NCBI GenBank assembly: GCA_964458335.1
Contig: CAYWIJ010000002.1
Span: 26,379 to 90,378 of the forward strand
Direction: 5' to 3'
Length of the DNA stretch: 64,000 bases
Origin: an uncultured Candidatus Peribacteria bacterium
GTDB taxonomy: Bacteria > Patescibacteriota > Gracilibacteria > Absconditabacterales > Absconditicoccaceae
Below, one piece after another: positions 1 through 50,409 of the stretch; the first letter of the stretch is position 1, and every line of letters starts with the position of its first letter. The notes beneath the pieces were generated by a model. The model saw only the letters and a list, made by a program, of their open reading frames with translations. It was not told the DNA's origin and searched no databases. Made by a program: the position numbers and the translations under genes.

Positions 1-103
1 ATATTACTTAGATGGATTAAATACCTAAAAAACTCTGTAAAAACTTGCAAAAAATACTTTTCTGACTATACTTTGAGAGATTATTTTAGATTGTTTGTGT
101 ACA

Positions 104-13144: not shown

Positions 13145-13177
13145 GAGATAAAAAATACGAAAAATAAAGTCAGATAT

Positions 13178-13552: not shown

Positions 13553-13644
13553 GAATATCAGTTAAGAGTGTAAAGTTAAGAGTTGGTTCCCAGATATAGT
13601 TATGAGTTTCTAGATATTTTAATTTGGAACTTAGCTAATTTACT

Positions 13645-25660: not shown

Positions 25661-28246
25661 TTAGCTAAGATAAACCTCAGTATGAGTAGGATCTCCAAGT
25701 TGAGCAAGTTGTTCATCTACCTGTGTATCAGCTGAAGGTCCATATTCTTTTCCTATGGTTTCTATAAGAGGATTGTCTGGACGTATAAGAGTGTCTCGTG
25801 TAATATCACTGAAATTTGTCTGTTGTTCAAATGCATTGATCAGTGATTCAAATTTATTAACATCAATGGTGTTATTTTCTTCTTTACCTGGTTGTGTACC
25901 AAAACATTGTAAAAAGAGTAATAAGGATTGAGATGAAAGTCTATTATGAGATTGGAGAATAGTGAGGAGAGCATTTTTGTTTGTGATACTAGTATCTGTT
26001 TGTGATTTGAGATAAGCAGTAATACGATCATTGAAATTTTTGTCATTGAGTAATGTTTGTAGAGTAGTGAAACTCTTCGTTAGTCTTTCGTTTTCTTCCG
26101 CTGAATGAGACCCACTATTACGAATCATCTGCAATATTTTAAATGTATCGGGATGAGTTGCACGATCAATAGTTTTTTCATCACTATTCGTCTCATGTTC
26201 GTAAGCATAAAGAGTTTTATAAAATGGATTAGTTGTCTTAATATCTGTCTGTTGATAGGCACCATCACTATCCCAAACTTTCATCAGGTCAAATATAGTA
26301 TTTTGTACTTTATTTTTACTTAAACCATGTGCAATACTTGCTCTTACATCGATAAGTTTATATGCAGATTGTTGGGTTTTTTCATGAATTGTGTCTGTGA
26401 TAGTATCTAAATAAGCTTGTTGGGGATTGTCGTTGCTGGCATTGTTTTGGATAATATTACCAGAGATTGATGTGATGATATCATCGGTATAGGATTGAAA
26501 ATTATCGATGGTTCCTATTTTAATTTTTCATGGAATGATTTTGTTAGGATCAGAAGATCTGTTTTCTAGTGGACTCGTCATAAAAATCGTATTTCCTTCT
26601 ATAGTAAGTTGAATACCTTGATAAGATTTACCATGCAAATAGAGTGGAATAGTATCTTGGTCGTCACTGAGAGTAATCTCAGATGGTTTGAAACTAAAAT
26701 CTTCTAGTCCAGGTGTGTTTTGCATTAAGGAACTGATATAAGAGAGCTTCCCCTTTTTGATTTGAGTTCATAATGTAGATTCTACTTGTGGACTAGTAAA
26801 ATTATTTTTCATGAGTGGTATGATAAGGCGTTGTTCTGTGAATCTCATACATCTTTCTCTAGACATTTTTTTCATATTTACTGCTCGTGGATTTTCTTTT
26901 TTATCTGCTTTGGGAGGATACAGTGTTTGTAATACTTTATCAGGAATAGGACGATGTGGGTTGGCTTTTAGAAAATATCGTAGTATTGCATTTTTTAGTG
27001 CAACTTGTTTTCTCGATGTATCAGTAGTAGATTGTTCGATAAGAGGAAATGATATACGTCACTCGACGATATGGATCATCTTATGTAATATCTCTTCACT
27101 CTTACTTTCTTCTCGTCTAAAATCATTGAGCATAGTATCTTTTGGAAGTGGAAAAGAATTGATGAGAGAATTATCGTCAAATCCTGGTTTAGGTTTACCT
27201 TCACTGTTAGTAAAGAGAGGAGGAATTGACATTCCCTTACTATTGGTTTGATCAAAATAATTACCAAGATCAGTATCTAGACTTGCTGATTCCGATGAGG
27301 AGCTATTCTTTTCTGCTATATCAAGAGTAGGTTGCTCCATCGTCTTCATGCCTCTGTTTTTGTTTTTCCAGCTATATGGGTTATCTATCCCTAAACCATG
27401 ATAGAACGCATTTTCATCGATCTGTGATTCTTCTAAGAATGAGGCAAACGATTCTGCCTGACTTCTCTCTGTATCGGTGATGATAATCTTTGGGTTTGTT
27501 TTGGACTGTTGGAGTTTTGCGTTGAGAGCGAGATGGTAGTTGAAGAAAATAAGAGCCTTCTTTTGAGCTTGAGCTGGAGTATCTCCATTGTTTTGGAAGA
27601 TGTCTTCTAATTTGGAAACAAGACTTTCTCATTTTTGGTTTTTTATTGCATAGAGTTGTTCTCTTGTATATTTGATGGTTACTGCCTCTGGATTCTTAAT
27701 TTCCTTATAGAGGTTTGTGATTTGAATACTTCATAATTTTTTCTCTTCATTAGTAATATTCTTCACGTCATTAGTAATATTCTTCACGTCATTAGTAATA
27801 TCCTCTTTATTCTTTAATGTGCTTTTCTCTTCATTAGTAGTAACTTCTTTATCTTTTAAATCTTGCTGATTTATATCATAATATTCTGTTTTGATTATCC
27901 CAATGAGATTATTTGTATATGATGATATATTTTCATCATCGAAACCATCTCTTGCTTTTTTAATAATGTGTTTGATGTACTCTGCTAAAAGAGAAATATC
28001 TAAAGAAGGGAAGTTAATTGTTTGTTTGATTACTTCTTCTACTTGTTGTTTAGTCTGATTATCTTTATCTTCTATAGTTTTAAGAAATTTTTGTATTTTC
28101 TCTTGTTGTTCAATTTCAAGATCAGGAAATTTTTGTATGATAGTTTTTATTTGTTTATCAGAAAAACTTTCTGAAGAAGATAAAACTTTATCAGGAGTTT
28201 CTATATTTATGGGTGTTTGGATATCATTGTTTCCCATGAGTGACAC
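25661..28246 (-). CDS. large hypothetical protein (861 aa)
   Basis: Track ORFs 27731..28246, 27059..27349, 26528..26725 and 25661..26284 share one frame. I walked every codion-level gap between them and found only TGA. TAA stop 25661-25663. No domain recognised. Confidence 0.7.
27748..27805. repeat. 21-nt tandem repeat (about 2.7 copies), coding DVKNITN repeats
   Basis: cattagtaatattcttcacgt occurs twice and is followed by a partial copy. It lies in frame within the 861-aa ORF. Confidence 0.8.
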
Positions 28247-28355: not shown

Positions 28356-28958
28356 TTATTCTCACTTTGCTATTTTGATGATATCATTAATATTAGCAAT
28401 ATCTTCTTTATTCTTAGCAATATCTTCTTTATTCTTAGCAATATCTTTTTCATTTTGAGTAATATTATTTTTACTTTTAGCAATATCTTTTTCATTTTGA
28501 GTAATATTATTTCGGGTTGTTACTAATGTATTATAGTCATTTTGGAATCTGTTATAAATGTCTTTTTGTCATCAGAATACTTTAAATGCTTCTTTTATTT
28601 CTTTGAGTACTTGTTGGACATATTGATCCTGGTAGAGTATTGATGTCTCTTGTTTATTAAGAAATACAACGAAACTAGTTCGGAAATCTACTAATTCTTG
28701 TCATGATAATCGCATAATATCATCAGTAGATTTTGCTCCATATTTATGAAGTAGATCATCTACTTGAATTTTTACCTTTGGATCACCTAAAGAGATAGGT
28801 GTTTCGATATTTTGAGTTTGGTCTTTATTCTGAGCTATAACAGTCGGTCATCATACACTGAGCGCAAGAACTGTAAGCAGAGCTTTGATCTTGAGTCAGA
28901 AATCTTTTTTGTTTTTAGATTCTGATGAAATATTAGCTGTATTGAGAGATGATTCCAT
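28356..28958 (-). CDS. secreted/membrane-anchored repeat protein, unknown
   Basis: ATG 28958 to TAA 28356-28358, 200 aa. N-terminal hydrophobic segment LKIKALLTVLALSVGG. C-terminal repeats NNITQNEKDIAKSK x2 and NKEDIAK x2. The frame was hand-scanned. Missing from the track. Confidence 0.65.
28391..28520. repeat. nested 21-nt and 42-nt tandem repeats (coding)
   Basis: ttagcaatatcttctttattc x2, then ttagcaatatctttttcattttgagtaatattattttt x2. No spacers, and in frame with the CDS. Confidence 0.8.
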
Positions 28959-29034
28959 ATCTAACGATATAAGAAATAAAACTCACGATTCATATAGATA
29001 TATTATAACTATTTTTTTGAATTTTGCAAGAGAA

Positions 29035-29343
29035 TTATATGACACTATCCATGATCCAGTTTCCATAACCGTGGCTGGATGTACCATTTAGTCTAATAAT
29101 ACAGGGAGTATCGTCAGGGTGAACAGATTTTACGGCTTCTTTTACTAATGCCCAATTTTGTGGTTTGGTATGATAGATTGTTACAACTTCACTTCCTTTC
29201 TGAATTTTTCCATTCCATATATAGGTATTTTGGATAGGGAATAAGTGTACTCCTGATATGAGCTTTTGACGGAAAAGGTGGTCACTGACCTTATCGGCGT
29301 TGTGCTGATCGTTGTGGGTGACATAGATGAGGATGACGTCCAT
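29035..29343 (-). CDS. cutA: divalent-cation tolerance protein CutA
   Basis: 102 aa with a CutA-like pattern: VILIYVT..A..V...L...KL.., YIWNGKI.., E..V..K. Confidence 0.75.
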   Translation of the reverse strand: MDVILIYVTHNDQHNADKVSDHLFRQKLISGVHLFPIQNTYIWNGKIQKGSEVVTIYHTKPQNWALVKEAVKSVHPDDTPCIIRLNGTSSHGYGNWIMDSVI

Positions 29344-29626: not shown

Positions 29627-30091
29627 TTATCTGTTCATCACTTTCAACTGTTCTAATACTTCTTGTGGATGAAGAGCTGGTTTTACATCTTCTCGTTTAT
29701 ACACAATATTTGCATCCTTATCAAGGAGAAATGTAGTCCTTACTACTCCCATATATTTGCGTCCATACATAGATTTTTCCTTTCGTACATCAAAACGTGG
29801 ATTACTGACCAAGACAAGATCCGTATCGGATATGAGCGGTATGGTCAGACCGTATTTTGTTTGAAATTTACAGTGACTTTCGTGGCTATCTTTACTTACG
29901 CCGATGATTTGGGTATTGAGTTTCTCAAATTCGGGTAGAAGATTGGTAAATCCTTGTGCTTCTAAGCTACATCCAGAAGTATCGTCTTTGGGATAAAAAT
30001 ACAAAACAGTAAAAGATTTCTGACTACAGAGGTCTTCCAGCGTGGTCTGGATTTGGATCTGATTGGGTTGGGTGAGGAGGAAAGGAGTCAT
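29627..30091 (-). CDS. bcp: thiol peroxidase / peroxiredoxin Bcp
   Basis: VLYFYPKDDTSGCSLEA peroxidatic Cys motif, plus IIGVSKDS. 154 aa. Confidence 0.85.
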   Translation of the reverse strand: MTPFLLTQPNQIQIQTTLEDLCSQKSFTVLYFYPKDDTSGCSLEAQGFTNLLPEFEKLNTQIIGVSKDSHESHCKFQTKYGLTIPLISDTDLVLVSNPRFDVRKEKSMYGRKYMGVVRTTFLLDKDANIVYKREDVKPALHPQEVLEQLKVMNR

Positions 30092-30187
30092 GTGAGAAAT
30101 TATAAGTTATAAATTTTGAGTTATACATTGATAATCTTAAAAATATAACTCTATAGTACAGAGTTTGGAGAAGTATTCAAGGAAAAA

Positions 30188-31228
30188 TTATTGACAAGCA
30201 GATTCGGTGATGGTGATTGTATTGTTATTATGATCAATCCTTGCTGTGACTCATAGTGGTAGTACCATCATAGGATCAGTATGACCGAAGTCCATATTAG
30301 TGATGATAGAGAGATGGGTTAGTCATAGTTCTTCATTAATAATTTTAAGTAATGTATCATCATAATTAATTTGTGATTGAGTAGTATAATTATATTGAGA
30401 TCTTCAAAGTAATATACCTTGTATTTTTTGGAGAATACCTTGAGATCATAGATTTCTAATTATTCTTTCAAATTGATTGATACTCATTTGCTCTTCTGAT
30501 GTTTCAATGAAGAGAATTTTATCGTTCCATTCATCAAGAGTAGGTCGAATACTTGTTCCTATCATAAAAGGGAAAACATCAAGACATCATCAGAGCAGTT
30601 TACCTTGTACGATACCTTCTCCTTGTAGTCGTCTTCGTGGAGTGTTTGGCATGAGATTTCTTTTGATATTTTGATTATCAGGATTTCACCAATCATAAAG
30701 TTCGTTTGTCCATCAGGATGTGTTTGGAGTAAGGAATCCAATGGGATCAGGACTAAAAAGAGATTTTTGTACATACTCAGCCATATACGGAAATATTCCT
30801 GTATTTTCACCAAATCAAGCCATGATACTTGGTCCATAAAATGATACGAGACCGGCTTTTTGACAGATAAAATGAGTGATAGTACTATCAGAATATCAGA
30901 GGAAAATTTTAGGATTATTGCGAATAATATCAAAATCGATATAGGGGAGTATTCTAATAGATTCTTCTCATCAGATGGTTGAGATGATAGCTTTGATATC
31001 TGGATTAGCAAAAGCATCCATCAAATCTTGAGCTCTTAGCTCTGGATGTTCATATACTCGTTGAGCAGATTGTAGAGTATGATTCATCTCTATCACGGTG
31101 ACTCAAAATTCTTGTTCGAGTTGTTGTTTACCGATAGCATATCTTTCTGGGCATGCTCAAGGTCATCACCATGAGAGAGATACGGTAGCTATGGTATCTC
31201 AGGGTTTGAGATGGAGAGGGTAGAGCAT
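30188..31228 (-). CDS. S66-family serine peptidase (LD-carboxypeptidase / MccF-like), copy 1
   Basis: LKPGDTIATVSLSWGG.., GYSDSTITH (nucleophile Ser), IETSEE and NMDFGHTDP (His). 346 aa. The frame was fully hand-scanned with no TAA/TAG. Composition is similar to the flanking genome. Confidence 0.85.
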
Positions 31229-31440
31229 GATAAAGCTCTTGAAAACTATAAAATATAATATAATATATATAATATATGGGAAACATTATTGTTTTTCAAT
31301 GAATAAATGCTTAGTCTAATTATAATTTAAATAAAACTATCAAATAAGTAAAGTAAGATGTTTTATATGTTTTCTTACTTGAAAAATGTTCTTTAAAACT
31401 TATACTATTCAATATATTTATTTATGATGATTTGATTGTA

Positions 31441-32433
31441 ATGATTATACCTAATAAATTAAAGAAAGGAGATGAGATAAGAATTATTGCTCCCTCTCGT
31501 AGTTGAAGTATATTTCAGGATGAATTTTTAAATTTAGCAAAAGATAAGTTAGAATTATTATGATATAAAGTTACTTTTTCAAAAAACATTTTTAATAAAG
31601 ATATTTTATGATCTTCATCAATAGAAGATAGAGTATCAGATTTGCATGATGCATTTTGAGATTCTTGTGTTAAAGCAATTATTACTATTATTGGTTGATT
31701 TAATATAAATACTATTTTGAATCATTTAGATTATAATCTTATAAAAAATAATCCCAAGATACTTTGTGGATATTCAGATATTACAGCATTACAAAATGCA
31801 CTATGGAAGAAGATATGATTAGTGACTTATTCTTGACCACATTTTTCAACATGGGCCATGAAAAAATGATTTGACTATATACAGGAATACTTTTTAAATA
31901 TTGTAACACAAGATTATCCTGTATCAATTTATCCCTCTCATGAATACAGTGAAGATAAATGGCATAAAGATCAAGATAGTAGAATATTTCTAGCGAATTG
32001 ATGATATAAAATATTAAAATATTGAATATCTACATGAAAAATTATTTGAGGTAATTTATGTACATTGAATCTATTACAATGAACAGAATATATGCCAGAT
32101 CTAAAGAATTGTATAGTATTTATTGAAGATGATAATATTGCGTGATCAGCAGGAGTGTTTGAATTTGAAAGAAATTTTCAGTCGCTTATGCAACAAAAAG
32201 ATGCTAAATATATTAAGTGATTGTTAATAGGAAGATTTCAAAAGGATGTGGATATGACAGAAGAGAAACTAAAGTATATTGTTTTATCAAAGACAGATTG
32301 ATTAGATATTCCTATTATATCAAATCTTGATTTTTGACATACATATCCTATGATTACATTTCCTATATGAGGTGTTATTTCTATAGAGGCTATTAATGAA
32401 AATGATATATCTTTAACTATAGAAACTCATTAA
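31441..32433 (+). CDS. S66-family serine peptidase (LD-carboxypeptidase / MccF-like), copy 2
   Basis: LKKGDEIRIIAPS, GYSDITAL, FIEDD and LDFGHTYP. 330 aa with about 20 in-frame TGA. Every codon was checked to TAA 32431-32433. Confidence 0.85.
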
Positions 32434-32459
32434 TAATTTAAGATTACTATACTATAATT

Positions 32460-32822
32460 ATGCAGGGCTTGTTAATAATAAAACCAGATGCTTTTAGAGA
32501 AAAAATTGATAAAGAAATACTAGATATATTATCTAATAGATGAATTGTTATAGTAAATGCTTTATATAAAGAAATATTATATGAAGATTTAAGACAATTA
32601 TATTTAATTGATATCTATCCTATGAGTATATCAGCTCATGATATTTTATTAGAAATATATTCATGATGTTCTACAATTTTAATTGTTGAATGAAATGATA
32701 TATTTAATAAATTGATGAAGGTTAAAAAAGAAATTAGGGAAAAATATAAAAAACAGTATTGATATATACATACCAGTGATAATAAACTTGAATTTGAAAG
32801 AGAAGTGAAAATTTTTATATAA
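32460..32822 (+). CDS. nucleoside-diphosphate-kinase-like small protein
   Basis: LLIIKPDAF at the N-terminus and YGYIHTSDN, which resembles the NDK NxxHGSDS catalytic-His motif. 120 aa. TAA 32820-32822 overlaps the convergent gene end. Confidence 0.6.
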
Positions 32823-34455
32823 ATAAATCTTTTATAGTAGTAATATTATCTAATAAAAGACTTTTAATGGAGTCTCTCTCATAGATTGTTCATATAAGGC
32901 TATTATCTATAGAATTATATTCTATGATTAAATGTTTTTTGTATCATTTTTTTATCATATATTTTAATATTTTTCATTTTTTATATATATTGTATGGATA
33001 TTCTTCTATGATAATATTCTCTTTAAATCTTATATAGTCTATGTATTCTCTTACTTGTTGATATTTGACATCAATAGGAATATTAATGGATATTCCAACT
33101 TTAGGTGATAATTCTAATATGTTATTTCATGTTTTTGTTTCTATAAGTTGTATGAGTCTTTCAAGACTGAATCCAATTCATGTTCATTGTATTAGAGGTC
33201 ATCATAAATTTTTTGTCATAAAATCATAAGAACCACCATCAGCTGTTTTCTTAGAAGACCCTGCAAAAATTTGATAACACAAACCATTATAAAATCAATT
33301 TCAATCTAATTTTCATAAACAAAATCTTATGTTTTTTATTCAATTATATTGCATTTTTTGAATAAAACTATTGATTTCATTTACTCTTTTTAAAAGAAAA
33401 GAGAATTTTTTGCTTAACTCTGATAACAGTTGAATACTTTGATTGTGATTGTTTCAACAAGATAGTAATCATAAAATTATCATGACCTGTTTCTCATTTA
33501 TTCAATAATTTTGAAGAAGTGTTTTTATATTATTGTGTGTTTTTTCTCTAATAATTTGATATACAATATTATCAATATCTATTTGCGATGGTTTATTGTT
33601 AAGAAAATAATAAAGTAAGTCTTTAATTATATCTAAATGGCTAATTTCTATATAGTAATCTTTTAATCAATAAATACTTAGAAACTTTAGAAAAATTGTT
33701 ATAATTTCTGTCGCTGCAAAGTCGTTATCTAATCAATATGTTTCTATTGCCAGCATCTCAAATTCTCTTTTTCTATTTTTCCCTGAACGGTAGCGATATA
33801 CGTTTCCAGAGAAGAATAGTTTAATCGGTAAATTGTCTCTAAAATTTGGATTATTGAGAATTGCGCGACTAATAGGTCAATTAATATCTGGTCTTAATAT
33901 AAGTTCACGATTAGACTTATCAAAAAATGTATATGACTTATCTCAGGGATAATAAGGTGCAGTTAATTTAAAAATATCAGAATATTCAAATATAGGAGTT
34001 TCTATTTTTTGAAATCAATGAGATCTCAGAAGCTTAAAGAAAGAATGTTTTAAATGTTCTGCTTTTTGTAAATATTCATCATTTAGATCACTTGTTCCAC
34101 GAGGAGTTTGTATTTTATTTTTATCTCTTATAACTTTAAATGATTGATAAAATTTATTTTTTTCATCCCAAATATATTGATTGATTTCTTGTATGATCTT
34201 ATTATCTGATAATTCAATACTATTAATAATATTAGATTTATAAGTATTTATAATATTAGTAATTTGTACACAAAATAAATTTCTATCACTTCAATTTACA
34301 TCTAATGTGTCTATTAGTTTATAAATATTTATACAAGCTTCATCTAATATAGATTGTATATTTTTTTTATGTTCTTGTAAAATAAGGAATTGTTTTGAAA
34401 AATTTATGAAAGATTCATTAATAAATAATTTTAAATGATCTTTATTATTTATCAT
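32815..34455 (-). CDS. divergent HisRS-like class II aaRS paralogue with N-terminal extension
   Basis: 546 aa, all codons hand-scanned. PRGTSDL, IETPIFE, LILRPDINGPISR, KREFEMLAIETYG and GIGFSLERL match the HisRS/HisZ fold. Catalytic signatures are altered: GNGFYNGL replaces RGLDYYTG, and GGSYDF replaces GGRYD. The N-terminal extension is about 115 aa. Confidence 0.75.
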
Positions 34456-35764
34456 TATGACTTAATGTATTAAATAAATTTTCCATAGTAACTTGTATTT
34501 GATCTCAATTTTTAAGATCTTTTAGGTACATATCAGTTCCATTATTTAATATAAGAAAATTATTTATACCTCTTTTTTCTGAAAATTTAAATTGATTTCA
34601 TATTTTCTTATTAAAATTAGGTATTATTTCACACGATATAAAATTATTTCTTAAGATATTTGCAATATTATTTGCTGTATTTCTTTGACTTTCACTATAT
34701 CATCAAATCATTAATTGTGTATTGAATAAGTTTTCTGTATTAATTTGTTGTAAATGATTTAATAATCAAAATAATCTTGTAAGTCATAAAGAGAATCAAA
34801 CACCTGGTAGTCTTTTTCAACTTATCATATTTGTTAAATTATCATATCTACCTCATCAACATATACTTATATTTCATAGTGTTTTTAATTTTCATTCAAA
34901 TATAGTTCCTGTATAATATCATAATCAACGCACCATATTAATTTTAAATTTGATGCAATGTGAGATATCGTTACTAACATTAGACATAATTTCTTGAATT
35001 TCGTTTATTGCATTATTAATTGTGATGTCGCCTTGATATATCTCAAATATTTTAGATAAAGATTGAGAATCGAAATCTATATCTCAATTATTAATAAATA
35101 AGTCAATTACTGAAGTTGGTATGTTAATTCTTTCTAATTCTTGTCTACATTGTTCACTTCATATTTTATCTAGTTTGTCTACTATATTAAGAAATAATTG
35201 CTTACTAGAACCATCTATATGATAAAAATTACATATTCAATCTATTAATTTGCGATTATTTATATATATATAAAATTGATCTGGGATTATTGTGTTTAGC
35301 GCTTTAACTCACATTTCTAATACTTCAGCATCATAATGTAATGGTAATGTTTCAATACCTATTACGTCAATATCGGTTTGTAAAAATTCTCTATATCTTC
35401 ACATTTGAGGTCTTTCTCATCTTCGACATTTTTGTATTTGATAGCGTTTAAATGGAAATGTTAAATTATGAAAATTATCAACTGTATATCTTGCAAATGG
35501 TACAGTTAAATCAAAATGTAAACCTAATTTAGGTTTTTTATGTTCATTTTCTTCAGAAGAAATATCATTGTACCTTCCAACACCATAAATTTCTTTATCG
35601 TCAGATCATTTAGTTAATAGAGTATCTAATGATTCTACTGAAGCTGTTTCAATAGGTATATATCAATAGAGCTTATATATGTTTTTTACTTTATCTATCC
35701 AAGATTCCATCAATAATTGTTCTTTAGGTAGTAACTCGGGAAATCAATTAATTGGAGAATTCAT
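34445..35764 (-). CDS. hisS: histidine--tRNA ligase (complete)
   Basis: [44 protein letters not shown] (motif 2), [20 protein letters not shown] and GVGFSLGLTRL, plus an anticodon-binding-like C-terminal domain. 439 aa with about 25 in-frame TGA. The frame was hand-scanned. Confidence 0.85.
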
Positions 35765-35834
35765 GATGTGAATAAAATGATATAAATTAACTATATTAAT
35801 AATTATATTATATATATATGTCAATAGAATTTAT

Positions 35835-36653
35835 CTATCAAATAATCTGTGTGTCTATATTATTCTGATAAAAAGGAATATATTCTTTAAAGAATTCTAT
35901 TAAAAATTTATTAATTTTTTTCTTATTATTAATAGGGTCATATTCCCAATCTAATACTTGTCTCATTTGTACTTTGAATTGAGGATATAGAGAAATAAAT
36001 TCTTTGTAACATATTTTAACGTCTGGTGTATAAATAGTTTTATGAAGCATAACTATTCATAAAGCAGATCTTAATATAGTTCTCATAATCCATCTACATA
36101 AAAATTCATTCTTTTTTCTTTCTCATAGGTAGTAAAATACTTTATTATCATTATATAAATAGGATCTTAATTCTTGTAGATAAGCTGGTAAATTTTGATA
36201 TAAATATAAAAATAGTTCTTTTCATACTTTATAATTTTGCAGACCGCAACATATATCCTGTCAATATAATAGTGCAGATTGAGCTAATAAATTTATTCTT
36301 AAAAGATTATATTGAATTGAATATAATACTTCATCTAATGATACTATTCATAAGTCATAAAAAGATATGTTGGGATCTATTAATGATAATTCTCTAGTTG
36401 TTTTTTTTATCCAACATACATCTTCATAAGAAACACTATTATTTATGATACATACAAAATCAATGTCTGAAAATCAATATTTTGCTGTTCATACGCTTAC
36501 ACTACCTCTGAGATATATTGAAATTATTCTATTTTTAAAATATTTTTTCATCTGAATTATTGTAAAATCAATAATCTGATGATATTCTTTTGCTATTTTA
36601 TTGATATTTCAAGTGTTTTGAATATATCAATGATAGTCAATTTGTATACTCAT
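35835..36653 (-). CDS. AadA/ANT-like nucleotidyltransferase (Pol-beta superfamily)
   Basis: IYLRGSVSVGTAKYGFSDIDFVCI matches the GS-x(9-10)-SD[IL]D motif of adenylyltransferases. The helical C-terminal domain resembles the AadA C-terminal region. 272 aa. Extends track ORF 35838..36050 upstream through TGAs. Confidence 0.8.
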
Positions 36654-36672
36654 GATAATTATATGATGAAAA

Positions 36673-37932
36673 TTAAATATTTTCTTTATCAAGATTAATG
36701 TGATTATATGGTCATTCTAGTTCTTGTGGTATATGATGATCAGCAATTAGTATAGTACAATGAGATTTATTATGATATTGATTGATGATATTAATAATAT
36801 TGTGTTTTGATACATCATCTAATCATGTAAATGGTTCATCTATTATCAAGAGTTCAGGCTCTTTATTTATGACTGATAGTGTTACTAATAGCTGCTTTTG
36901 TCCTCTACTTAAGAAAAAAGGATGCAAGTCTTTATATTTTAGTAATCAAATAAGCTCTAATTGCTTAATAATATCATCTGTTACTCATATAGTATCTTTT
37001 CAAAATTGAATTTCTCTCAGTACACTTCTTTCAAAAAGTTGTTTTTCAGGTTCTTGTAATATAAATCAATAGCTTTTAAATTTTTTTTTTATATGTCCTG
37101 ATATTGGTTTATGTTTTCATCTTATTAACTGAAGTATTGTAGATTTTCATATTCAATTACCTCCTGTGATTATATTGATTGATCATTTTTTTATATTAAA
37201 GTTGATATTTTGAAGTATTGGTATTTTATTAGAATAATGAAAATTTATATTAGATATTTCAATAATATTACCTCATTTTAGATCACTTTTGTCACTTGAT
37301 TGTAAGACAGATCTTTCTATTATTTTTAAAGATTTATTTGTTTTTAGATTAATATATTGATTAAATATTTCTAATAATTCTTTTTCATGAGTAGCAATAA
37401 ATACTATTTTATTATGTAATGATGTGGTTATATAATTCTTAAGAATATTGATATTATAAAAATCTAAGTTTGCAGTAGGTTCATCTAATAAAAGGATAGG
37501 ATTATCAGAAGATAATATAGAAATTAGGCTAATGATTTTTCTTTCACCAGAAGACAAATCTTTGATTAAAGAATTTTTTTTATTTTTTATTTTAAATAAT
37601 TTAAGGAGGTAATTAGCTGTTTCTTTTTCTTTATTATTAAGATAAAAAAATATTTCATGATAAACTGTATTAAAAAGAAACTGATTTTCAGGATCTTGAA
37701 AACTCATTTTAATGATATTATCTTCTGTAGTATTATGAGATATAATATAATCTCATTGAAAAATATTATCTATTTTTAATCAAGAAATTAGTCTAAGGAA
37801 TGTTGATTTCCCAGATCAAGTATCTCATAATATCCCAATGATATCTCATTTTTGAAATTCTTGAATAATGTCTTGGAAGAGAATTTCTCAAGTGTCTTTA
37901 TTGAATAAACTCTTTATATTAATAGTAAACAT
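36673..37932 (-). CDS. fused tandem ABC ATPase (ECF EcfA-EcfA' type)
   Basis: Two nucleotide-binding domains. The first has GDTGSGKST / LSSGERK / LLLDEPT. The second has GGNGIGKST / LSRGQKQ / LIIDEPF. 419 aa. Extends track ORF 37273..37707. Confidence 0.85.
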
Positions 37933-38595
37933 TTATTTTTTAATATTTAGATGAAAACTATCATTTAATGTTTGTATCCTTTTAATATGAGAAAGAAAAA
38001 TATTTCCTCAAATATAGTAAATTTTTTTTATTTTCTTTCATATAGAGTTGCTTTTATATTGACGTGATTCCAAAGCAGTAAGAGTAGTATCAACATCTCT
38101 CATAATATAGTTAAATGTATTTAGTGCTATAGTAATAGTAAGAATAATATTTTTTGGTAATTTTATATATATAAGAAAATTCATTAATTCATCTTCAGAT
38201 ATTATAGATATATATAATATTCATGAGAATAATATACTTAATGTTTTTAATATTACTATTATTACTTTATGAATTGTATTAGAAGAAATAAAGCTTCATC
38301 GAGGTCGTTCTAATAAAATTCTTCCTTCTACTTGACTAAATAATATTCGAAATAAGGAACATGTAATAATGAAAATTCATATTCGTCTAAAATATTGTCC
38401 ATATATTCTAAAAAATCAAATGAAGTATAATATAATAAATGCTAATAAGAGTGTGACAAGATAAAAATATATATTATTATAAAATATTAATAATAATCAA
38501 ACAAAATGAAAGAAGAATACTTTAATAATAAATGGTATTGTAAATCGTATAGAGTTATCCTTTAAAGATACAGTGAAAGTACTTTTATAAGCCAT
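37933..38595 (-). CDS. ECF transporter transmembrane (T, CbiQ/EcfT-like) component
   Basis: 220 aa with 5-6 hydrophobic segments and a C-terminal coupling-helix-like TALESRQY motif. Its stop abuts the ATPase start (TAAATG, same frame). Confidence 0.7.
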
Positions 38596-39186
38596 TTATT
38601 TATTATGTATAAATGGTAATTTATTTACAACAGGAGATAGAAATTTCAATAAAGGTATGCCAATGATTATTCATACAATTAATCATCATCAAATCCATCA
38701 ATAAATTGCAGGTTTTATAGCTTCTGATGGTATTAGTCCAGCTTTATTTAGAATAATTATAGTTCGAATTGAAGAAATAATATTAGCCATTATAACTAAT
38801 GTGATATATCCAATATAATATTTTATCTTACTAAATGATGAATTTAAATTCATGTATTTAAATCATAGAAGAATTATAACTCCTCAGAAAGTATTTCATA
38901 AAGCTCCTAGTGGAACGAAAGCATGAAATCAAGTAAATAGCGCCGCTATAATTAATCCTAAATATATTGCAAGAATTCATTTCCATTTAAACCATATTGC
39001 GAATGCATAGAAAAATGCAGATCATATATATAGAATTGAAATATTGAATATACCAAGTGGGAATCCAATTACTCAAATAATATCCAATGCAGCGACTATT
39101 CAAGATAATATTCCGATAATAATAAAGTTGTATATATAGAGATTGTTCTTTTCTGTAGATGATGCAATGATTTTATTCATGATCAT
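38596..39186 (-). CDS. ECF substrate-capture (S)-like membrane protein
   Basis: About 195 aa with about six hydrophobic segments. Sits first in the operon, and its stop abuts the T-component start (TAAATG). The start is ATG 39186 or 39180. Substrate unknown. Confidence 0.6.
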
Positions 39187-39213
39187 GATATAATAAAATA
39201 TATAAAATAGTGT

Positions 39214-39242
39214 ATTATATAAAATGTATATAAAGATGTCAA
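39214..39242 (-). promoter_or_regulatory. consensus sigma70-type promoter of the ECF/aaRS operon
   Basis: The minus strand reads TTGACA (plus 39237-39242), 17 nt, then TATAAT (plus 39214-39219). This lies about 25 nt upstream of the first ATG and immediately downstream of the leuS stop. Confidence 0.6.
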
Positions 39243-39245
39243 TAC

Positions 39246-41711
39246 TTAATTATTAATTATATTCATAATCTTATCGGCTACAAAAATCACTTTCTTCGTC
39301 GTACCAGTAAGATATTTTGAGATAGTTTCATCAGCATGGACGAGAGCGAGAAGTTCTTGTTCTGAGATACCAGCTGGGACGGCAAGAGTTCCTCTCATTT
39401 TACCGTTGATTTGAATAGGGAAATTGATGGCTTTCAGTGTAATTTTACTTTCATCTGCTACAGGCCAGGATGAGAAGGCGATATCATCCGTGTGTCCTGT
39501 TTTCTCCCATAAGAATTGTGCAGTAGCAGGAGCGAAAGGTGCGAGAAGTTGTGCAATATATCACAGAGATTCTGCATCAACTGCTTGGTTGTCATAGATG
39601 GTATTGATCGCGATCATAATCTTACTGATAGCAGTATTGAATTTATATTGTTCTACATCTTCAGAGACTTTCTGGATCGTCTCATGAATAGTAGCGATGA
39701 CGTCTTCGTTGACTGACCCGAATCGTGTCTGATCCGTGATTTTGTACACTCTATCTAAAAATTTCTTTGTACCATTGAGAGCTCCGTCATTTCGGATTTT
39801 GTCCAATTCAATCGGTCCCATAAACATGAGATAGGTTCTCACGGCATCAGTTCCATAGGTATCAATAATCTCGAGAGGATCAACCCCGTTATTATATCTC
39901 TTTCCCATTTTACGACCATCAGCTCCGAAGACCATCCCTTGATGAATAAGTTTCGGAAATGGCTCTGGAGTATCTACATATCACTGATCATAGAGAAATT
40001 TGTGGATGAAACGAGAGTAGAGGAGATGGCCAACCGTATGTTCTTTCCCTCCAGTATACAAATCTACGGGAAGTACTTTTTTAGCAAGTTCTTTGCGAAT
40101 GAGTTCTTTGTCATTGTGGGCATCAGGAAATCTGAGAAAGTAGAACGAACTATCCATAAAAGTATCGAGTGTGTCACATTCTCTGAGGTATGGACCTCCC
40201 CCCTGTCCCCCCTCCTGTCAGAGAGGGGTATAATATTTGAATGTAGGATGATCTTCGAGTGGAGATTTTCCCTTAGGTTTGAAGTCAGTCACATCGAGAG
40301 GTAAAATAACAGGAAGTTCTGACTCTGGTATGAGTTGTGGATTGTTGGCTTCATCATAATATACTGGAATTGGGCTTCCTCGATATCTTTGGCGAGAGAC
40401 CGACCAATCGCGGAGACGATAAGTAATCTTTTTGCGACCTACTCAGAGTTCTTCAAGATAAGTAGTAATACTTTTTTGTCCATCTTGGATAGATAATCCA
40501 TCAAATTTATCCGAATTTACTAGAGTATGTAATTCATTCATTGCAGGATTTCATTTTGATGTTAATACTGTTGGTAATGAATCTCGTTTGTATATATTTA
40601 TATCAAAATCATCAGTCAACCATCATATTTTTTCTCAATCTGGTATAATATGAACTCAAATATTAATAACTCTTTTAGGAACTATTATACCTTCTTTATT
40701 TTGATTTGATTTCCAAAATAAGAAATCTCTCTCGTCGTGAGCTGGTACCATCATCACTGCTCCTGAGCCATAATCCATCAGTACATAGTCTGCAAACCAT
40801 ACGGGTATTGAATCTCCTGTGAGAGGATGGATGGCATACAATCCAGAAAATACTCCCGTCTTGTCAGCTACGTCTTGTTGTCTCTGGACTGCCGTCTTTG
40901 CTAAGGCTGTATTTCTATATGATTGTACTTGTGCTTTTTTATCTTCCGTAAGGAGATCGTCAATCAATGTATTTTCTGGAGCGAGAACAACAGCTGTGAC
41001 TCCATACAAAGTATCTGGACGAGTTGTGAATACGGTCAGAAGAATATCACTATTGGTAATGTTGAAATCTATTTCAGCTCATTCCGATCTTCCAATCCAA
41101 TTTTTTTGCATAATTTTGGTCTCTTCTGGTCGATCTAGAGCATCCAAATCTTCAATAAGTCTATCAGCATAATCTGTGATTTTTATAAACCATTGCATAT
41201 GTTTTTTTTGTACGATTTCGGCTTTGCATCTCTCACATTTCCCATCGACAACCTGATCATTAGCAAGAACCGTCTGATCGACAGGACATCGATTTACAAA
41301 TTTCTCATCACGATAGACGAGTCCTGCTTCCATGAGTTTGCTGAAAATCCATTGCGTCCACTTATAATAATCTGGCATACTGGTATCGATAATTCTATCA
41401 TAATCGAAAGAAATATCGAGTGCTTTCACCTGATCCAGAAACATCGTTTTGTTGATATCCGTGACTTCACGAGCTCCTTTGTGTTGTTGGAGAGCATAGT
41501 TTTCGGTTGGTAATCCAAAAGCATCAAATCCAAAGGGATTGAATACCGTATATCCTTGCATTCTCTTCACTCTTGCTACGACATCATTGATCGTGAAGAC
41601 GGAAGCGTGGCCAGCATGCAGACCTACACCTGAAGGATAGGGGAACATGGTCAAGGCATAGAAAATCTTGTCAGCTGGAGCATCGATTAAATTCGGAGAA
41701 AAGTTAGTCAT
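39246..41711 (-). CDS. leuS: leucine--tRNA ligase
   Basis: [14 protein letters not shown] (HIGH region), [27 protein letters not shown] and [13 protein letters not shown] (KMSKS-like). 821 aa. Three track ORFs and the gaps between them were hand-scanned. Stop is TAA 39246-39248. Confidence 0.95.
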
Positions 41712-45526: not shown

Positions 45527-46894
45527 TTATACTTCTGCTACTTGTTTCTTTTCTTCTAGCATATCTTCCAGCGCTTTATAATTTATTTTACCGATACTGA
45601 TCATTGGAATATTATTGATAGTAATAACTTTAGAAATATTATGAAGTTGTGATAAACCATTATTAAAAATATAAGTATTGACGGCTATTGTATCCAAATT
45701 TTGAGTGGTAAAAAAATAAATATGTTCATCTTTTCCTATACACACTCCTTCAAATTCTTGATTGAGTTGAAGTTGCATATATTCAAGATTTATCATCTCC
45801 GATCATTTTTTGATAATTCTTTTCATTCTTCAGAGAATAGTAATATGTCCATCAGTATTAGCATAGACATAATCTTGAGTATTGAAATACACTTTCCCAT
45901 TTATTTCTACTGTTTCTAATGGTTCGTCATAATAAGAACCTACTGTAGATTCAATATTTATAAGCAGAATTCCTTTCCCATATTCGCTTATTTGACCTTC
46001 TTGATCCATGATTCTATAATGAATATGAGACAGTATTTTCCCATCGCTTTGGGTATTGTGGTTATTGTCATTGGTGGGTAAGAGTGAAACGATCGGAAAA
46101 CATTCAGTCAAACCATATCATTTTTGATATTTGGTATAAGGAAGTATTTTATAAAATTTTTTGATAAGAGCATCACTTGAAAAATCTCCTCAGACGACAA
46201 CAGATTCTAAAGTTTGTAAGTGTTCAGGATGAGCATTATCTAACAGTAAATTAAGAAAATAAGGCGTGATAGTGATATGTTGGATTCCATACTCTCGAAT
46301 AGTAGAACTAAGTGTTATGGGATCTTGTATCCTATAGTCAAAATAAAATTCTATATTCGTAGAAGTATATCCGAGACGTTGAAGAAGTGGGAAGATAAGA
46401 CCAGTATTAAGACCATAACTATGAAAATAAGGAAGGCTACAAAGCATTCTATGATATGGTTGTGGTTCAGCATATTCTATCCATCATTCAATATTTTTTT
46501 TCAAGGCAGAAAGTTTCATCTCTATAAGTTTAGGATATCCTGTAGATCATGAAGTAAACAGATAGACTGATTTATTCAGAAAATTATTTTTGTATTTTTT
46601 TATACTCAGGAATAGATATCATAAAAAACTATACCAAAGATAGTAGAATTTACCATATATACTATCTAATCTGAGAATATGATATTTCTTTTTTTCAAAA
46701 CGTATTCATAATTGTTTCTCAAGTTGATGACTGGAAAAAATAACATGCGTATCAAATGATTTGAGTTGTTCATCAATATATTTTTGTCCTAAAGAATAAT
46801 TAATAAAACAAATATCATTATTTTGGGTAAAATAATAGAAAAAGTATTGAGTATAGTTGTTATGAGGAAAGAGTATGGCGATATTCGCGTGCAT
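45527..46894 (-). CDS. adenylate-forming enzyme (ANL superfamily, AMP-dependent ligase, short form)
   Basis: LFTSGSTGYPK (G = TGA), GYGLTE and TQDYVYANTDGHITILGRMKRIIK. Four track ORFs in one frame are joined by TGA. 455 aa. Confidence 0.8.
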
Positions 46895-47824: not shown

Positions 47825-48042
47825 GAAGAGAGTGTATTGTGTTATGATAAATAAAAGGATATTTCTTATAGTGATATGTACATAAAAGTCAATAACAATA
47901 TACTTTACAATGTATACTTCAATATCCATAAAAAGTAAAAAATACCATTAGAATGAGGTAAAGTTTAAAAAAATGGCTTGAAATCAAAAAAAAAAAAAGT
48001 TATTATTCTCATAAGCTTTATATTGATAATAAATACAAAAAA

Positions 48043-50409
48043 ATGAAAAAATTATTTTTTTGACTGATGATGAGTGTAGCGATTAGTATGATGTACGTAT
48101 CAGCTGATATGATACCATGAGCATTTGTGACGACATGGAAGACAGACAATCCATGATGAGTTGCTAATCAGATTATCATACCCATCCAATGAGCGTGATA
48201 TAATTATAATATCTATTGGTCAGGAGTAGATAATAGCTATACGGGAGAACTGTTGTGACGTACAGCAGCGACAACGATTACATTTCCAAGTACGGGAACA
48301 TATCAAGTCCAGATCACAGGAGCATTTCCACAGATATATATCAATAGTAATGCGAACACTCGTCAAAAATTACTCAGTGTAGATCAGTGGTGAACAGGAG
48401 TATGGAGAAGTATGCAAAATGCATTCTATGGAGCGAATAATATGGTGATCAATGCGACAGATACTCCAAACTTGAGTACTGTGACGAATATGAGTCAAAT
48501 GTTTAGAGCTGCAACGACATTAGTAGACAATGGATGAGCGATGAATACTTGGGACGTTAGTAAAGTAACTACTATGCAAAGTATGTTTAGTAGTGCAAGA
48601 AATTTTAATCAACCAATTTGAGATTGGGATGTGAGTAATGTAACTACTATGCAAAATATGTTTTATCAAGCAAGTGCATTTAATCAAGATATATGAGATT
48701 GGGACGTGAGTAAAGTAACTACTATGAGACATATGTTTGCTGCTTATGATCCATGAACTGACACTACTTTTAATCAAGATATATGAGATTGGGACGTGAG
48801 TAGTGTGACAGATATGTTGAGTATGTTTCAACATAATATTGCTTTCAACCAACCGTTAAATAATTGGAATGTGAGTAATGTAACTACTATGAATTGTATG
48901 TTTTGCTATAATATTGCTTTCAACCAACCGTTAAATAATTGGGATGTGAGTAAAGTAACTGATATGCAATGAATGTTTTATGGTATGATAAACTTCAACC
49001 AACCGTTAAATAATTGGAATGTGAGTAATGTAATTGATATGTCAATGATGTTTGGAGGTGATGATAGTGAAAGTAGTACTAAAAACTTCAACCAACCGTT
49101 AAATAATTGGGATGTGAGTAATGTAACCACCATGGAAGAAATGTTTTCTGCCGCAAAATCATTCAATCAAAATCTTTGATGATGGAATGTAGAAAAAGTA
49201 AGTAATATGTCTAATATGTTTTCTTGAGCAAAACTTTCCGTAGTAAATTATGATGCCTTATTGAGTGGATGGAATAGCCAGAGCTTAAAAACAGGCGTAA
49301 ATTTCCATGGAGGAGATAGTCAGTATTGTGTATCAGATTTAGAACATACTGATCTCTTTAGTGGATCTCATGGATGGATATTACAATGAGATGGTGGAAT
49401 GAATTGTATACGTGATATACTACTTTCAAAGATAACTATTAATGAAAATCAGACATTGGTAGGGGCGTTATCATTGGATAGATTTAATAATATTCTTTGA
49501 TTATGAACACATATGTATACTCTGATATCTGGAACAGGAGATGAGGACAATAGTCTATTTGTAATTAGTGGAAATCAACTTTCTTTCATTTCAGCACCAG
49601 ATTACGAGAATCCACAAGATCAGTGAGATGGCGTAGGAAATAATACTTATCGTATTAGAATACAAGGAGAAGATGGTAATGATGGATCGATCTTAGAAAA
49701 GATATTTATCATCACTGTTTTGAATATTAGTGAAAGTACAGGATGAGGAGGTGGAGGATATGTGATACCAGATAAAGTAAAAGAGGTAGAAGAAGTAACA
49801 AGAGTAGATCCAACTATCTTCAATCCTAGTATATCATCATCTACCTGTTTTAGTCCACTTAACCAAACAACTATCGACCAGTGAGTGAAGGTAAGTGAAG
49901 CATTCAAAACTGCCCATCAGATGTTATATAGTTATGGATTGACTAAACGAGAAAGGACTGCAGATTATAGACCATATGACTATCTCACGAGAGAAGAAGC
50001 AGCAAGATTTATGGTAGAGTTTGCAGAGAATGTTTTATGTAGAAAGAAAACGAGAACCTACAATAATAATTTTTCAGATCTCGATACTGCTAATCCTACG
50101 TTGATGAAATTTATTAGAGAATCATATAACTATGGAATCTTTAATGGACATACTGATGGTACATTTAAACCTACAGAACGTATTACTAATAATGAATTAG
50201 CTACCACTATGGTAAGACTGATTACGAACTCTTTCTTAGAAGAACCACAAGAAGATCGAGCATTGAATTATAGAAATACTTTATCTTATTATGCAAAAAG
50301 ATCATTATTGAATGATCAAGGTAGAGGAAATATCGCAGAAGCGATCTATGATCTGTATAGAAATAATGAGTATGTTCTGAAAGATATGGGATATGTTATT
50401 AAGAGTTAA
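48043..50409 (+). CDS. surface protein: signal peptide + BspA/DUF285 repeats + cadherin-like domain + SLH domain
   Basis: MKKLFFGLMMSVAISMMYVSA signal. About 9 repeats of FNQP[LI]xxW[DN]VSxVTxMxxMF. Cadherin-like ITINENQ..DEDNSLFVISGNQLSF..PDYENP..TYRIRIQ. C-terminal FSDL..GIFNGHTDGTFKPTERITNNE (SLH-like). 788 aa. The frame was hand-scanned. Confidence 0.85.

Follow-up and report, generated by a model that had tools for sequence, protein, structure and literature searches.

How did a histidyl-tRNA synthetase (HisRS) come to share an operon with a second, HisRS-like protein, and does the AT-rich block of DNA that holds them encode a working system? The question is posed by the region from 31.3 to 39.25 kb (here called the island) of a 64,000-nucleotide stretch (the window) of contig CAYWIJ010000002.1 from an uncultured Candidatus Peribacteria bacterium, in which TGA is read as glycine (genetic code 25). 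An earlier description of the same DNA, made from its letters alone (the original prediction), took the region for a foreign island with a transporter, a nucleotidyltransferase (NTase), 2 HisRS genes, an NDK-like gene, and S66 peptidase genes. The reading that we prefer, and to which we assign a probability of about 45%, is that the block was horizontally acquired from a lower-G+C code-25 relative and carries a conserved histidine-charging and supply module with a non-canonical pseudo-synthetase partner.

The HisRS pair and its recurrence in other lineages

The core of the island consists of 2 genes:

34445..35764, minus strand: histidyl-tRNA synthetase (hisS) of 439 aa, of the cyanobacterial/Bacteroidota/eukaryote-like type; TIGR00442 at 293.4 bits (cut-off 286.75)
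32815..34455, minus strand: HisRS-like paralogue of 546 aa, with the Pfam domain tRNA-synt_His; its start overlaps the hisS stop by 11 nt

Judging from its sequence, the hisS product looks like an ordinary working enzyme. Against structures in the PDB it scores 232 bits with the Nostoc HisRS (3net), with that of Elizabethkingia also near, 132 bits with the human enzyme, and 57 to 77 bits with HisRS of the E. coli, S. aureus, and Thermus type. It keeps R113, E115, R121, Q127, R259, Y263, Y264, E270, and R311 (E. coli numbering), including Arg259, the HisRS-specific catalytic residue, and its substitutions E83D and E131D are common to the whole clade to which it belongs. This clade, which comprises the island HisRS and the relatives P0021 to P0027, is distinct, with scores of 400 to 480 bits and all other HisRS at or below 321 bits. 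The C-terminal HGTP anticodon-binding domain falls under the Pfam threshold (PF03129, 17.5 bits; cut-off 21); the alignment to the Nostoc HisRS reaches residue 432, and the clade relatives P0021 and P0024 to P0027 carry this domain.

In the paralogue, a helical N-terminal extension of approximately 115 aa precedes a class II HisRS-type core, which is followed by a C-terminal alpha/beta domain. The identity between the 2 neighbors is only 23%, and the nearest matches of the paralogue are the HisRS of S. aureus, Thermoplasma, and Thermus and HisZ; a recent tandem duplication of hisS was rejected on account of both the low identity and the different HisRS types. It reaches neither the HisRS equivalog (TIGR00442, 158 bits vs 286.75) nor the HisZ equivalog (TIGR00443, 145.6 bits vs 271.65). 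Modelling and searches used code-4 database copies (P0001, P0017, and P0020) or standard-code homologues in place of code-25 translations. A profile search of 1.84 billion representatives recovered 17 family members at 167 to 272 bits, followed by a gap down to ordinary HisRS at 122 bits or less. In the window, the pocket of the paralogue carries R259D, Q127M, T85N, E83D, E270Q, and a change of GGRYD to GGSYD, with the arginines of motifs 2 and 3 kept. Across 21 sequences of the family, the same sites are changed (E83D, T85N, Q127M, E270R/K/Q, and R259H, the last being Asp/Glu in the window and in locus L001), whereas the family retains the arginines of motifs 2 and 3 as well as E131 and Y264, which contact the imidazole; the motif-1-like 'ETP' is likewise present in the paralogue. 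To judge from these alignments, the pattern is one of purifying selection on a changed site, not of decay. The protein, which the original prediction called degenerate, is thus not a decayed copy of the first HisRS and belongs instead to a separate family that is altered in a conserved way.

In the AlphaFold2 (AF2) model of the paralogue from locus L001 (52% identical to that of the window; pLDDT 80.7), a four-helix N-terminal extension, which is confined to the subclade of the window and L001, is followed by the HisRS core and, at residues 455-550, by a C-terminal domain with a beta-alpha-beta arrangement. In Foldseek searches, this model aligned to full-length HisRS structures over approximately 437 to 470 columns and also matched HisZ (3od1) and the HisRS-like domain of Gcn2 (9f58_E and 9bf3_A). 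The Pfam anticodon-binding domain PF03129 (HGTP_anticodon) had no match in any of 18 family members.

Among known proteins, HisZ is the obvious point of comparison, being a bacterial-type HisRS paralogue without aminoacylation chemistry, as the island paralogue probably is as well; TIGR00443 is among the best models of the latter, and 3od1 among its structural matches. HisZ, however, consists of the catalytic domain only and lacks the C-terminal domain of HisRS, whereas the island paralogue has an additional C-terminal alpha/beta domain, as in full-length HisRS. Furthermore, HisZ partners the short form of HisG, in most cases inside the his operon, and is not needed by the long form with HisG_C; the window contains no HisG, and the HisG encoded near 2 of the related pairs (L089 and the P0140 contig, see below) is the long form. 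HisZ in the strict sense was therefore rejected on the basis of the TIGR00443 score, the C-terminal domain, and the coupling to hisS rather than hisG. In NCBI, 1 family member, KKQ77159.1 from Parcubacteria, is annotated as HisZ ("ATP-PRT regulatory subunit"). The paralogue resembles SLIMP and the HisRS-like domain of Gcn2 in having a full-length synthetase-like fold with a disabled or changed active site kept under selection. SLIMP forms a heterodimer with SerRS2. SLIMP and Gcn2 are both eukaryotic, in contrast to the island paralogue, which is bacterial, lies in an operon with an active enzyme, and derives from another HisRS type than its partner. A review of synthetase duplications describes SLIMP as a SerRS paralogue and lists HisZ as the only paralogue derived from HisRS (PMC9437257). 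Our literature searches returned nothing relevant on a described HisRS-like partner or on a link between HisRS and MccF. The family defined here is a second conserved HisRS-derived family besides HisZ, full-length, with a rewired active site, and coupled to a single HisRS clade; it occurs in code-25 bacteria, Parcubacteria, and some standard-code lineages, where its members are currently annotated as HisRS or HisZ.

Loci related to that of the window are organized as follows:

L001, code 25, 39% G+C: HisRS and paralogue, converging on an NDK-like gene
L002, code 25, 28% G+C: HisRS, paralogue, NTase
L086 (NCBI metagenome-assembled genome, MAG), code 25, 26% G+C: NMT1-type binding protein, NPP-like protein, HisRS, 459-aa phosphoribosyltransferase-like (PRTase-like) protein, NPP-like protein, paralogue, then histidine ammonia-lyase (HAL), permease, ATPase, and S51 peptidase
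L172: same opening as L086
L089, L170, and L171, standard code, 46-56% G+C: HisRS overlapping a more divergent HisRS-like gene
L089, wider context: complete his operon with long HisG, then the pair, converging on an S66 gene
P0140 contig (from its gene table only): NMT1-ABC importer, NPP-like protein, methyltransferase, NIF3, HisRS, paralogue, radical SAM protein, NPP-like protein; the pair region adjoins hisG, hisI, and a TrpR-like gene
L085: HisRS without a paralogue within 3.7 kb

The HisRS and the paralogue occur together at 8 of the 9 loci of the clade and at 4 of the 5 loci that were reached through HisRS alone, a count which avoids ascertainment through the paralogue. The 2 genes overlap start to stop or nearly abut in 6 loci (the window, L001, L002, L089, L170, and L171), and are separated by 2 genes in L086 and by 78 nt in the P0140 contig. 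As controls, we used approximately 159 ordinary hisS loci with their flanks (2.07 Mb), including ordinary loci from a metagenome scan; none contained a second HisRS-like open reading frame (ORF) (Fisher p = 7e-13 vs the clade loci). That metagenome scan yielded 79 ordinary HisRS/HisZ loci and a single true relative, L002. A scan of contigs from GTDB representative genomes with the paralogue gave no matches, and with the HisRS clade only ordinary HisRS, at 38% identity or less, were found among the matches listed.

The neighbors of the pair recur as well, with counts that are small: 2 loci each, most of the supporting contigs being 2 kb long. An NDK-like gene lies beside the pair in the window and in L001 (45% identical) and in 0 of 159 controls; the NTase does so in the window and in L002, again with 0 of 159; and an S66 peptidase of the same subfamily accompanies the pair in the window and in L089 (45% identical), compared with 1 of 159 controls. 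Gene order varies, the NTase being located upstream of hisS in the window and downstream of the paralogue in L002. Members of the NTase family found apart from the pair (L083 and L084) adjoin an NMT1-type binding protein each time, preceded in 1 case by an S51 peptidase, which mirrors the location of the NTase beside the ECF importer in the window. Since the pair recurs with NDK-like, NTase, and S66 genes in varied orders and lineages, and these neighbors are nearly absent at the ordinary hisS loci, the comparison supports a functional link between the genes over chance juxtaposition. The proposal that the genes form a linked set is therefore strengthened by their co-occurrence outside this genome, to which the architecture is not confined, the pair being present both in code-25 (26-39% G+C) and in standard-code (46-56%) lineages. 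We conclude that the HisRS/paralogue pair is a real but uncharacterized module rather than a one-off, set in a reproducible neighborhood of importer, AadA-fold NTase, MccF-like or S51 peptidases, and NDK-like gene.

A histidine theme also runs through these loci, the pair adjoining the his operon in L089 and the P0140 contig and HAL in L086. HAL is likewise found near ordinary hisS in 12 of the 159 controls (L105, L115, L118, L124-L128, L144, L145, L149, and L167), mostly MAGs of Bacteroidota, with L128 an Akkermansia MAG; a hisS-hutH neighborhood thus seems to be common in Bacteroidota, independently of the paired HisRS clade. Directly after hisS, in the slot taken by the paralogue at other loci, L086 (11321-12700) and L172 (1353-1916) encode a protein without a Pfam match (459 aa in L086; 39% identical), in which the stretch 'KIYIVDEAISRGRTL' resembles the PRPP-binding motif of type I phosphoribosyltransferases. 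Finally, 2 NPP-like ('sulfatase'/type I phosphodiesterase) genes without obvious signal peptides flank the pair in L086 (8858-9973 and 12713-14092) and in the P0140 contig (JGI 3300075153; 5173-6327 and 12428-13861); in both, they adjoin an NMT1-type ABC importer, and the contigs are unrelated.

Companion genes and the function of the module

The remaining island genes, together with the promoter and the S66 gene next to the island, are:

38596..39186, minus strand: small membrane protein of 196 aa, putative S component; first gene of the operon, abutting EcfT
37933..38595, minus strand: EcfT/CbiQ-type transmembrane coupling component of 220 aa; Pfam CbiQ PF02361 at 35.1 bits (cut-off 25), TIGR02454 at 30.9 bits
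36673..37932, minus strand: EcfA-EcfA'-like fused double ABC ATPase of 419 aa; Pfam ABC_tran twice
35835..36653, minus strand: pol-beta-type NTase with a C-terminal helical domain, 272 aa; Pfam NTP_transf_2 at 26.9 bits
32460..32822, plus strand: short NDK-like protein of 120 aa; Pfam NDK PF00334 at 33.9 bits (cut-off 27)
31441..32433, plus strand: S66 serine peptidase copy 2 of 330 aa, MccF-like branch (BA_5613/Lmo1638 subfamily); Pfam Peptidase_S66 and S66C; G+C 0.25
30188..31228, minus strand: S66 copy 1 (Ba3275 'MccC family' subfamily), outside the low-G+C block; G+C 0.35, TGA-rich (57%)
39214..39242, minus strand: perfect sigma-70 consensus promoter, TTGACA-17-TATAAT; the sole 12/12 match in 30000-40500

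All 9 gene calls of the original prediction check out. The proposed identities were borne out by Pfam, NCBIfam, PDB, or fold searches, with 2 reservations: no family was matched by the 'ECF-S' component, and 'degenerate' is too simple a term for the second HisRS, which is altered in a conserved way. The predicted promoter is present as the only perfect match in 10.5 kb; it begins 4 nt beyond the leuS stop, shares its strand with leuS, and lies 28 nt upstream of the first ATG. The 5 operon junctions measure 0, 0, 19, 70, and -11 nt, and hence the description of abutting or overlapping genes applies to 3 of them and not to the 2 with spacers of 19 and 70 nt.

The first 3 genes resemble ECF vitamin importers in uniting CbiQ/EcfT, 2 EcfA-like ATPase domains, and a small membrane protein with 6 segments in a single operon. 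They differ in having a short fusion of the 2 ATPases (419 aa), a short EcfT (220 aa), and an S component that matches none of the known S families. In the translation of the ATPase, Walker A, Walker B, and signature motifs are present in both halves, and its best NCBIfam models, ECF_ATPase_2 (191 bits) and ECF_ATPase_1 (171 bits), are both below their cut-offs. The putative S component has approximately 6 hydrophobic segments by hydropathy and no Pfam match even at an E value of 10; its assignment is based on position, size, and segments. The NDK-like protein keeps the catalytic-His motif IHTSD and has a shortened Kpn-loop region; it falls under the equivalog level (NF001908, 27.4 bits vs a cut-off of 155), with 120 aa compared with approximately 140-150 aa for full-length enzymes.

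In the NTase, the motif GS-x10-DxD is invariant. The AF2 model of its homologue P0019 (pLDDT 69) had AadA, AAD(9), and ANT(4') as its top full-length PDB matches (E approximately 1e-3, TM 0.40), with which the island family would share a pol-beta NTase domain followed by a C-terminal helical domain, as far as a model of this moderate confidence can tell. Identity to the AadA/ANT enzymes, among them ANT(3'')(9), ANT(9), and ANT(4'), is approximately 15%, and the scores are below the NCBIfam family cut-offs (ANT_9, 22.8 bits vs 340; ANT_4p_I, 19.3 bits vs 350). Moreover, the consistent neighbors of the island NTase family are importers and the HisRS pair rather than resistance cassettes. A role of the locus in anti-phage defence was rejected, PADLOC giving just weak partial matches to the NTase (E 1e-4 to 1e-3).

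Both S66 proteins fall with the MccF-like branch, as had been proposed, and not with the murein LD-carboxypeptidase LdcA. Copy 2 scores 360 bits with B. anthracis BA_5613 (4e5s/5usd), 353 with Listeria Lmo1638, 126-139 with MccF, and 45-70 with LdcA; copy 1 scores 306-310 bits with 5f5x/5f9m and approximately 137 bits with MccF, and the 2 copies are 31% identical. Copy 2 has a loop Trp that is aligned to the loop Trp of the B. anthracis MccF. For the E. coli MccF, stacking of W186 on adenine is described, and most of the many stand-alone MccF homologues lack an assigned role (PMC8323819). The island protein thus shares the S66 fold, the scores, and the aligned loop Trp with MccF and its stand-alone homologues BA_5613 and Lmo1638. 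It differs from MccF in its setting, which is not an mcc cluster. As a separate observation, copy 2 is well over half identical to the B. anthracis and Listeria proteins (4e5s/4h1h; estimated by eye from the alignment), a closeness to Firmicutes exceeding what is usual for a code-25 candidate-phylum bacterium, which hints at inter-phylum transfer of this peptidase subfamily.

We propose that the core of the module is a two-gene unit in which the competent HisRS would charge tRNA-His. Its translationally coupled partner, a full-length protein of bacterial type, retains the arginines with which class II enzymes bind ATP and, in E131 and Y264, the contacts to the imidazole, and has lost the HisRS-specific Arg259 together with the contacts to the amino-acid backbone. 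Such a protein probably does not aminoacylate tRNA, and by analogy with HisZ, the Gcn2 HisRS-like domain, and SLIMP it is most likely a regulatory or structural subunit that binds histidine and/or tRNA-His. It may itself bind to the HisRS encoded next to it or, instead, to the accompanying enzymes that handle nucleotides. The companions, namely an importer (ECF here, NMT1-type ABC elsewhere), an AadA-fold NTase, an MccF-clade S66 (elsewhere S51) peptidase, and the short NDK-like protein, would serve to provide an auxotrophic cell of reduced genome with histidine and nucleotides and to keep these in balance. Since the HisRS of the relatives sits at locally typical composition and, in 2 lineages, beside the his biosynthesis operon, a role in housekeeping or histidine economy fits it better than that of a resistance paralogue. 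Within the window, we found no his biosynthesis genes, no HisG, and no second ordinary hisS, and no T-box or other riboswitch control even at an E value of 1. If the partner is indeed a regulatory or structural subunit, it would be a bacterial counterpart of the eukaryotic pseudo-synthetases.

A narrower version of this relationship would make the 2 proteins an obligate alpha-beta HisRS heterodimer on the pattern of SerRS2 and SLIMP in insect mitochondria; one active site would have been given up in favor of tRNA binding or a regulatory function, and the other genes would be bystanders. The translational coupling of the 2 genes in 6 loci and 2 lineages speaks for it, as do the full-length HisRS architecture of the paralogue with its C-terminal alpha/beta domain, the 'ETP' of motif 1 and the purifying selection, and the strict association of the pair with a single HisRS clade. 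However, the partners come from different HisRS types, that of Nostoc and human on the one hand and that of S. aureus, Thermoplasma, Thermus, and HisZ on the other, and therefore the compatibility of their interfaces is not a given. Furthermore, 2 genes split the pair in L086, L085 has no partner nearby, and the anticodon-binding domain was matched in 0 of the 18 family members. We consider an obligate heterodimer a credible if unlikely arrangement.

Alternatively, there may be no system at all, with unrelated housekeeping and salvage genes having been moved or kept together and their recurrence stemming from the shared ancestry of compact genomes. Reduced genomes do pack unrelated genes into operons, the companions recur only twice each and mostly on 2-kb contigs, and some of the synteny could be inherited, given that 4 of the loci (the window, L001, L002, and L086) are from the code-25 radiation. 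Against this reading stand the differing positions of the NTase in the window and L002, the occurrence of an S66 gene with the pair at 56% G+C in a standard-code lineage, with just 44-45% identity to the island at the protein level, and the lack of these neighbors at the ordinary hisS controls. Mere bystander status of all the genes is, in our estimate, rather unlikely.

The changed pocket also admits a more adventurous interpretation, under which the partner is an active class II adenylate-forming ligase with re-specified pocket, working in a histidine-nucleotide conjugate pathway spread among candidate-phyla-radiation and other uncultured bacteria. Its pocket still has E131 and Y264 for contact with the imidazole, the residues that contact the alpha-amino and carboxylate groups are replaced, and position 259 holds His, Asp, or Glu instead of Arg. 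Such a ligase would activate a non-proteinogenic substrate with an imidazole group or, alternatively, hold histidyl-AMP. The other enzymes of the pathway would be the AadA-fold NTase, the NDK-like protein, the NPP-like phosphodiesterases, and the MccF-clade or S51 peptidases, and the whole might be a signal, a cofactor, or a toxin-immunity system. We regard an active ligase as quite unlikely; were it true, it would amount to a histidine-nucleotide chemistry that is as yet unknown.

As to function, the original prediction saw a resemblance to loci that produce, take up, or confer resistance to aminoacyl-nucleotide 'Trojan horse' inhibitors; the compound would here be similar to histidyl-adenylate. 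In such a system, the HisRS would be the resistant copy of the target, the paralogue a decoy or adenylate-forming enzyme, and the S66 proteins hydrolases of the aminoacyl-nucleotide amide, while assembly or modification of the nucleotide moiety would fall to the NTase and the NDK-like protein, and transport of the compound to the ECF system. The MccF-like affiliation of both S66 proteins, the aligned loop Trp, and the linkage of an S66 gene to the pair in 2 very distant lineages are in its favor. The pocket of the paralogue, with ATP-binding arginines and imidazole contacts kept and backbone contacts changed, would suit an imidazole-bearing non-standard substrate, and nucleotide enzymes recur nearby (NTase, NDK-like, NPP-like phosphodiesterases, and the PRTase-like protein). 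By contrast, the window lacks an MccB/ThiF-type enzyme, a precursor-peptide gene, an MccE-type acetyltransferase, a HIT hydrolase, and an exporter, and the transporter is of the importer type. The review of these compounds does not mention HisRS or histidyl and describes no natural aminoacyl-nucleotide that targets HisRS (PMC8323819); the abundance of stand-alone MccF homologues, mostly without an assigned role, likewise counts against the proposal. In addition, the pair of the relatives has the genomic setting of a housekeeping gene, with his biosynthesis genes alongside and a composition typical of the surroundings. We regard an inhibitor locus as distinctly unlikely; the active-ligase interpretation described above is a modified form of it.

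Composition, genetic code, and origin of the island

The island is bounded by 2 composition borders:

31200..31440, no strand: left border, divergent intergenic DNA between S66 copy 1 and S66 copy 2; fall within 200 nt
39187..39300, no strand: right border, at the leuS stop codon (39246-39248)

Sliding windows confirmed the abrupt change of G+C content that had been counted by hand between S66 copy 1 and the leuS stop, and found it sharp at both ends. In 1-kb windows, G+C is 0.20-0.275 across 31-39 kb, whereas all other windows are at 0.27-0.41, typically 0.33; in 100-nt windows, it drops from 0.42 (31100-31199) to 0.18 (31300-31399) on the left and rises from 0.19 (39200-39299) to 0.45 (39300-39399) on the right, exactly at the leuS stop. 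The mean GC3 of the 8 island genes is 0.124 vs 0.237 in 32 other genes (Mann-Whitney p = 9e-6), and residues with AT-rich codons (FYMINK) make up 44.1% in the island vs 32.7% elsewhere. TGA is the majority Gly codon in the island, as noted before, with 110 TGA and 49 GGN (69%, 110/159), compared with 265 TGA and 674 GGN (28%, 265/939) in the rest of the window (Fisher p = 1.6e-22); for hisS, an earlier hand count of approximately 25 TGA and 12 GGN comes to 23 and 11 when computed.

The predicted absence of table-11 ORFs from 31017 to 35838 also stood up, with none of at least 60 aa in this interval and just 3 short ones up to 39300; under code 25, the whole region is coding, as had been claimed, and 8 genes fill it. 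In alignments with standard-code homologues, TGA stands opposite Gly in 42 of 69 aligned cells for HisRS, 12 of 19 for S66, and 16 of 20 for the NTase, and never opposite Trp, and therefore the code is 25, not 4. The public copies P0001, P0017, and P0020 from the source genome, as well as P0002 and P0148, have Trp at every TGA, corresponding to code-4 translation, and are wrong at approximately 4% of residues, all at Gly positions, which explains their "96% identity" to the code-25 translations. With TGA at conserved Gly and with the nearest HisRS and HisRS-like relatives on code-25 contigs, the evolution of the island in a code-25 lineage, as originally proposed, is upheld.

The joint shift of G+C, GC3, TGA share, and amino-acid usage, the position of both borders at gene boundaries, and the clustering of the code-25 paralogues in the tree underlie the transfer part of our reading; the direction and the source of the transfer are inferred. 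The block may have replaced a resident hisS locus. If the transfer is accepted, the case would be a clean example of gene transfer inside the TGA=Gly radiation that involves an essential translation gene. Phages and plasmids, which the original prediction had considered as code-25 sources besides another cell, were rejected: the paralogue, the HisRS clade, and the NTase had no relatives among viruses, and the searches for phage and plasmid DNA gave no phage matches and 2 trivial matches in the plasmid collection.

A partial precedent is the histidine decarboxylase (HDC) island of Lactobacillus parabuchneri (hdcP-hdcA-hdcB-hisS), which has a lower G+C content and carries an extra hisS with transporters and peptidases (PMC5313534). 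The 2 islands have in common an acquired, lower-G+C block in which hisS, transporters, and peptidases are tied to the supply or use of histidine. They differ in that the Lactobacillus island has transposases, tRNA genes, His T-boxes, and a decarboxylase, none of which is present here, whereas the code-25 island adds the HisRS-like paralogue, the NTase, the NDK-like gene, and the ECF transporter.

Several points weigh against the reading of an acquired histidine-charging and supply module. The island bears no signatures of mobility, with no recombinase among its 8 genes, no tRNA gene in the 64-kb window (ARAGORN), only AT-rich chance matches among flanking direct or inverted repeats, and the near-empty phage and plasmid comparisons just mentioned. 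The closest known relative of the pair, L001, has 39% G+C, and therefore no low-G+C donor has been identified. As for function, the roles of the NTase, the NDK-like protein, and the S66 peptidase and the substrate of the transporter are guesses; the companions recur at only 2 loci each, mostly on 2-kb contigs, and the clade locus L085 has no paralogue within 3.7 kb of its HisRS. Finally, other class II synthetases use Mg2+ at the position of Arg259, so that the loss of this residue is no proof of inactivity and its conserved replacement by His, Asp, or Glu could support a different chemistry.

That the island is an assembly or binning chimera, a fragment of a lower-G+C code-25 population joined into what is a metagenome-assembled contig with abrupt composition borders, is very improbable, considering that both borders lie in intergenic DNA with intact flanking genes and no repeat that would mislead an assembler, that the promoter follows the leuS stop by 4 nt on the leuS strand, and that an independent sequencing run yielded a contig with 100% identity to window positions 35383-36871, which lie in the island interior and do not include the junctions.

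To the left of the island, the genes between 28356 and 31228 have TGA shares of 73%, 67%, and 57% of their Gly codons at a near-normal G+C of 0.29-0.35. They include the genes of a 243-aa coiled-coil/repeat protein (28356-29087) and of S66 copy 1, with those of CutA1 (29035-29343) and a Bcp/AhpC peroxiredoxin (29627-30091) in between. It is possible that an earlier acquisition, since then partly ameliorated, prolongs the foreign region to the left.

Other features of the window

Elsewhere in the window, a bacterial class A RNase P RNA (13646-13988, minus strand; 109 bits) is the sole Rfam family above its gathering score. Positions 45527-46894 (minus strand; G+C 0.29) encode an AMP-binding (acyl-adenylate-forming) enzyme that matches PF00501 at 94 bits over the C-terminal half of the profile only. 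There are 2 very large ORFs, one of approximately 1,860 aa at 41-5695 (plus strand) and one of 858 aa at 25661-28237 (minus strand), the latter being of low complexity with short tandem 'NITNDVK/NITNEEK' repeats. From its translation, the gene at 47962-50409 (plus strand) is predicted to encode a large surface protein with many tandem repeats of the 'NQPLNNWDVSNVT.M..MF' type (BspA-like leucine-rich) and a Gly run.

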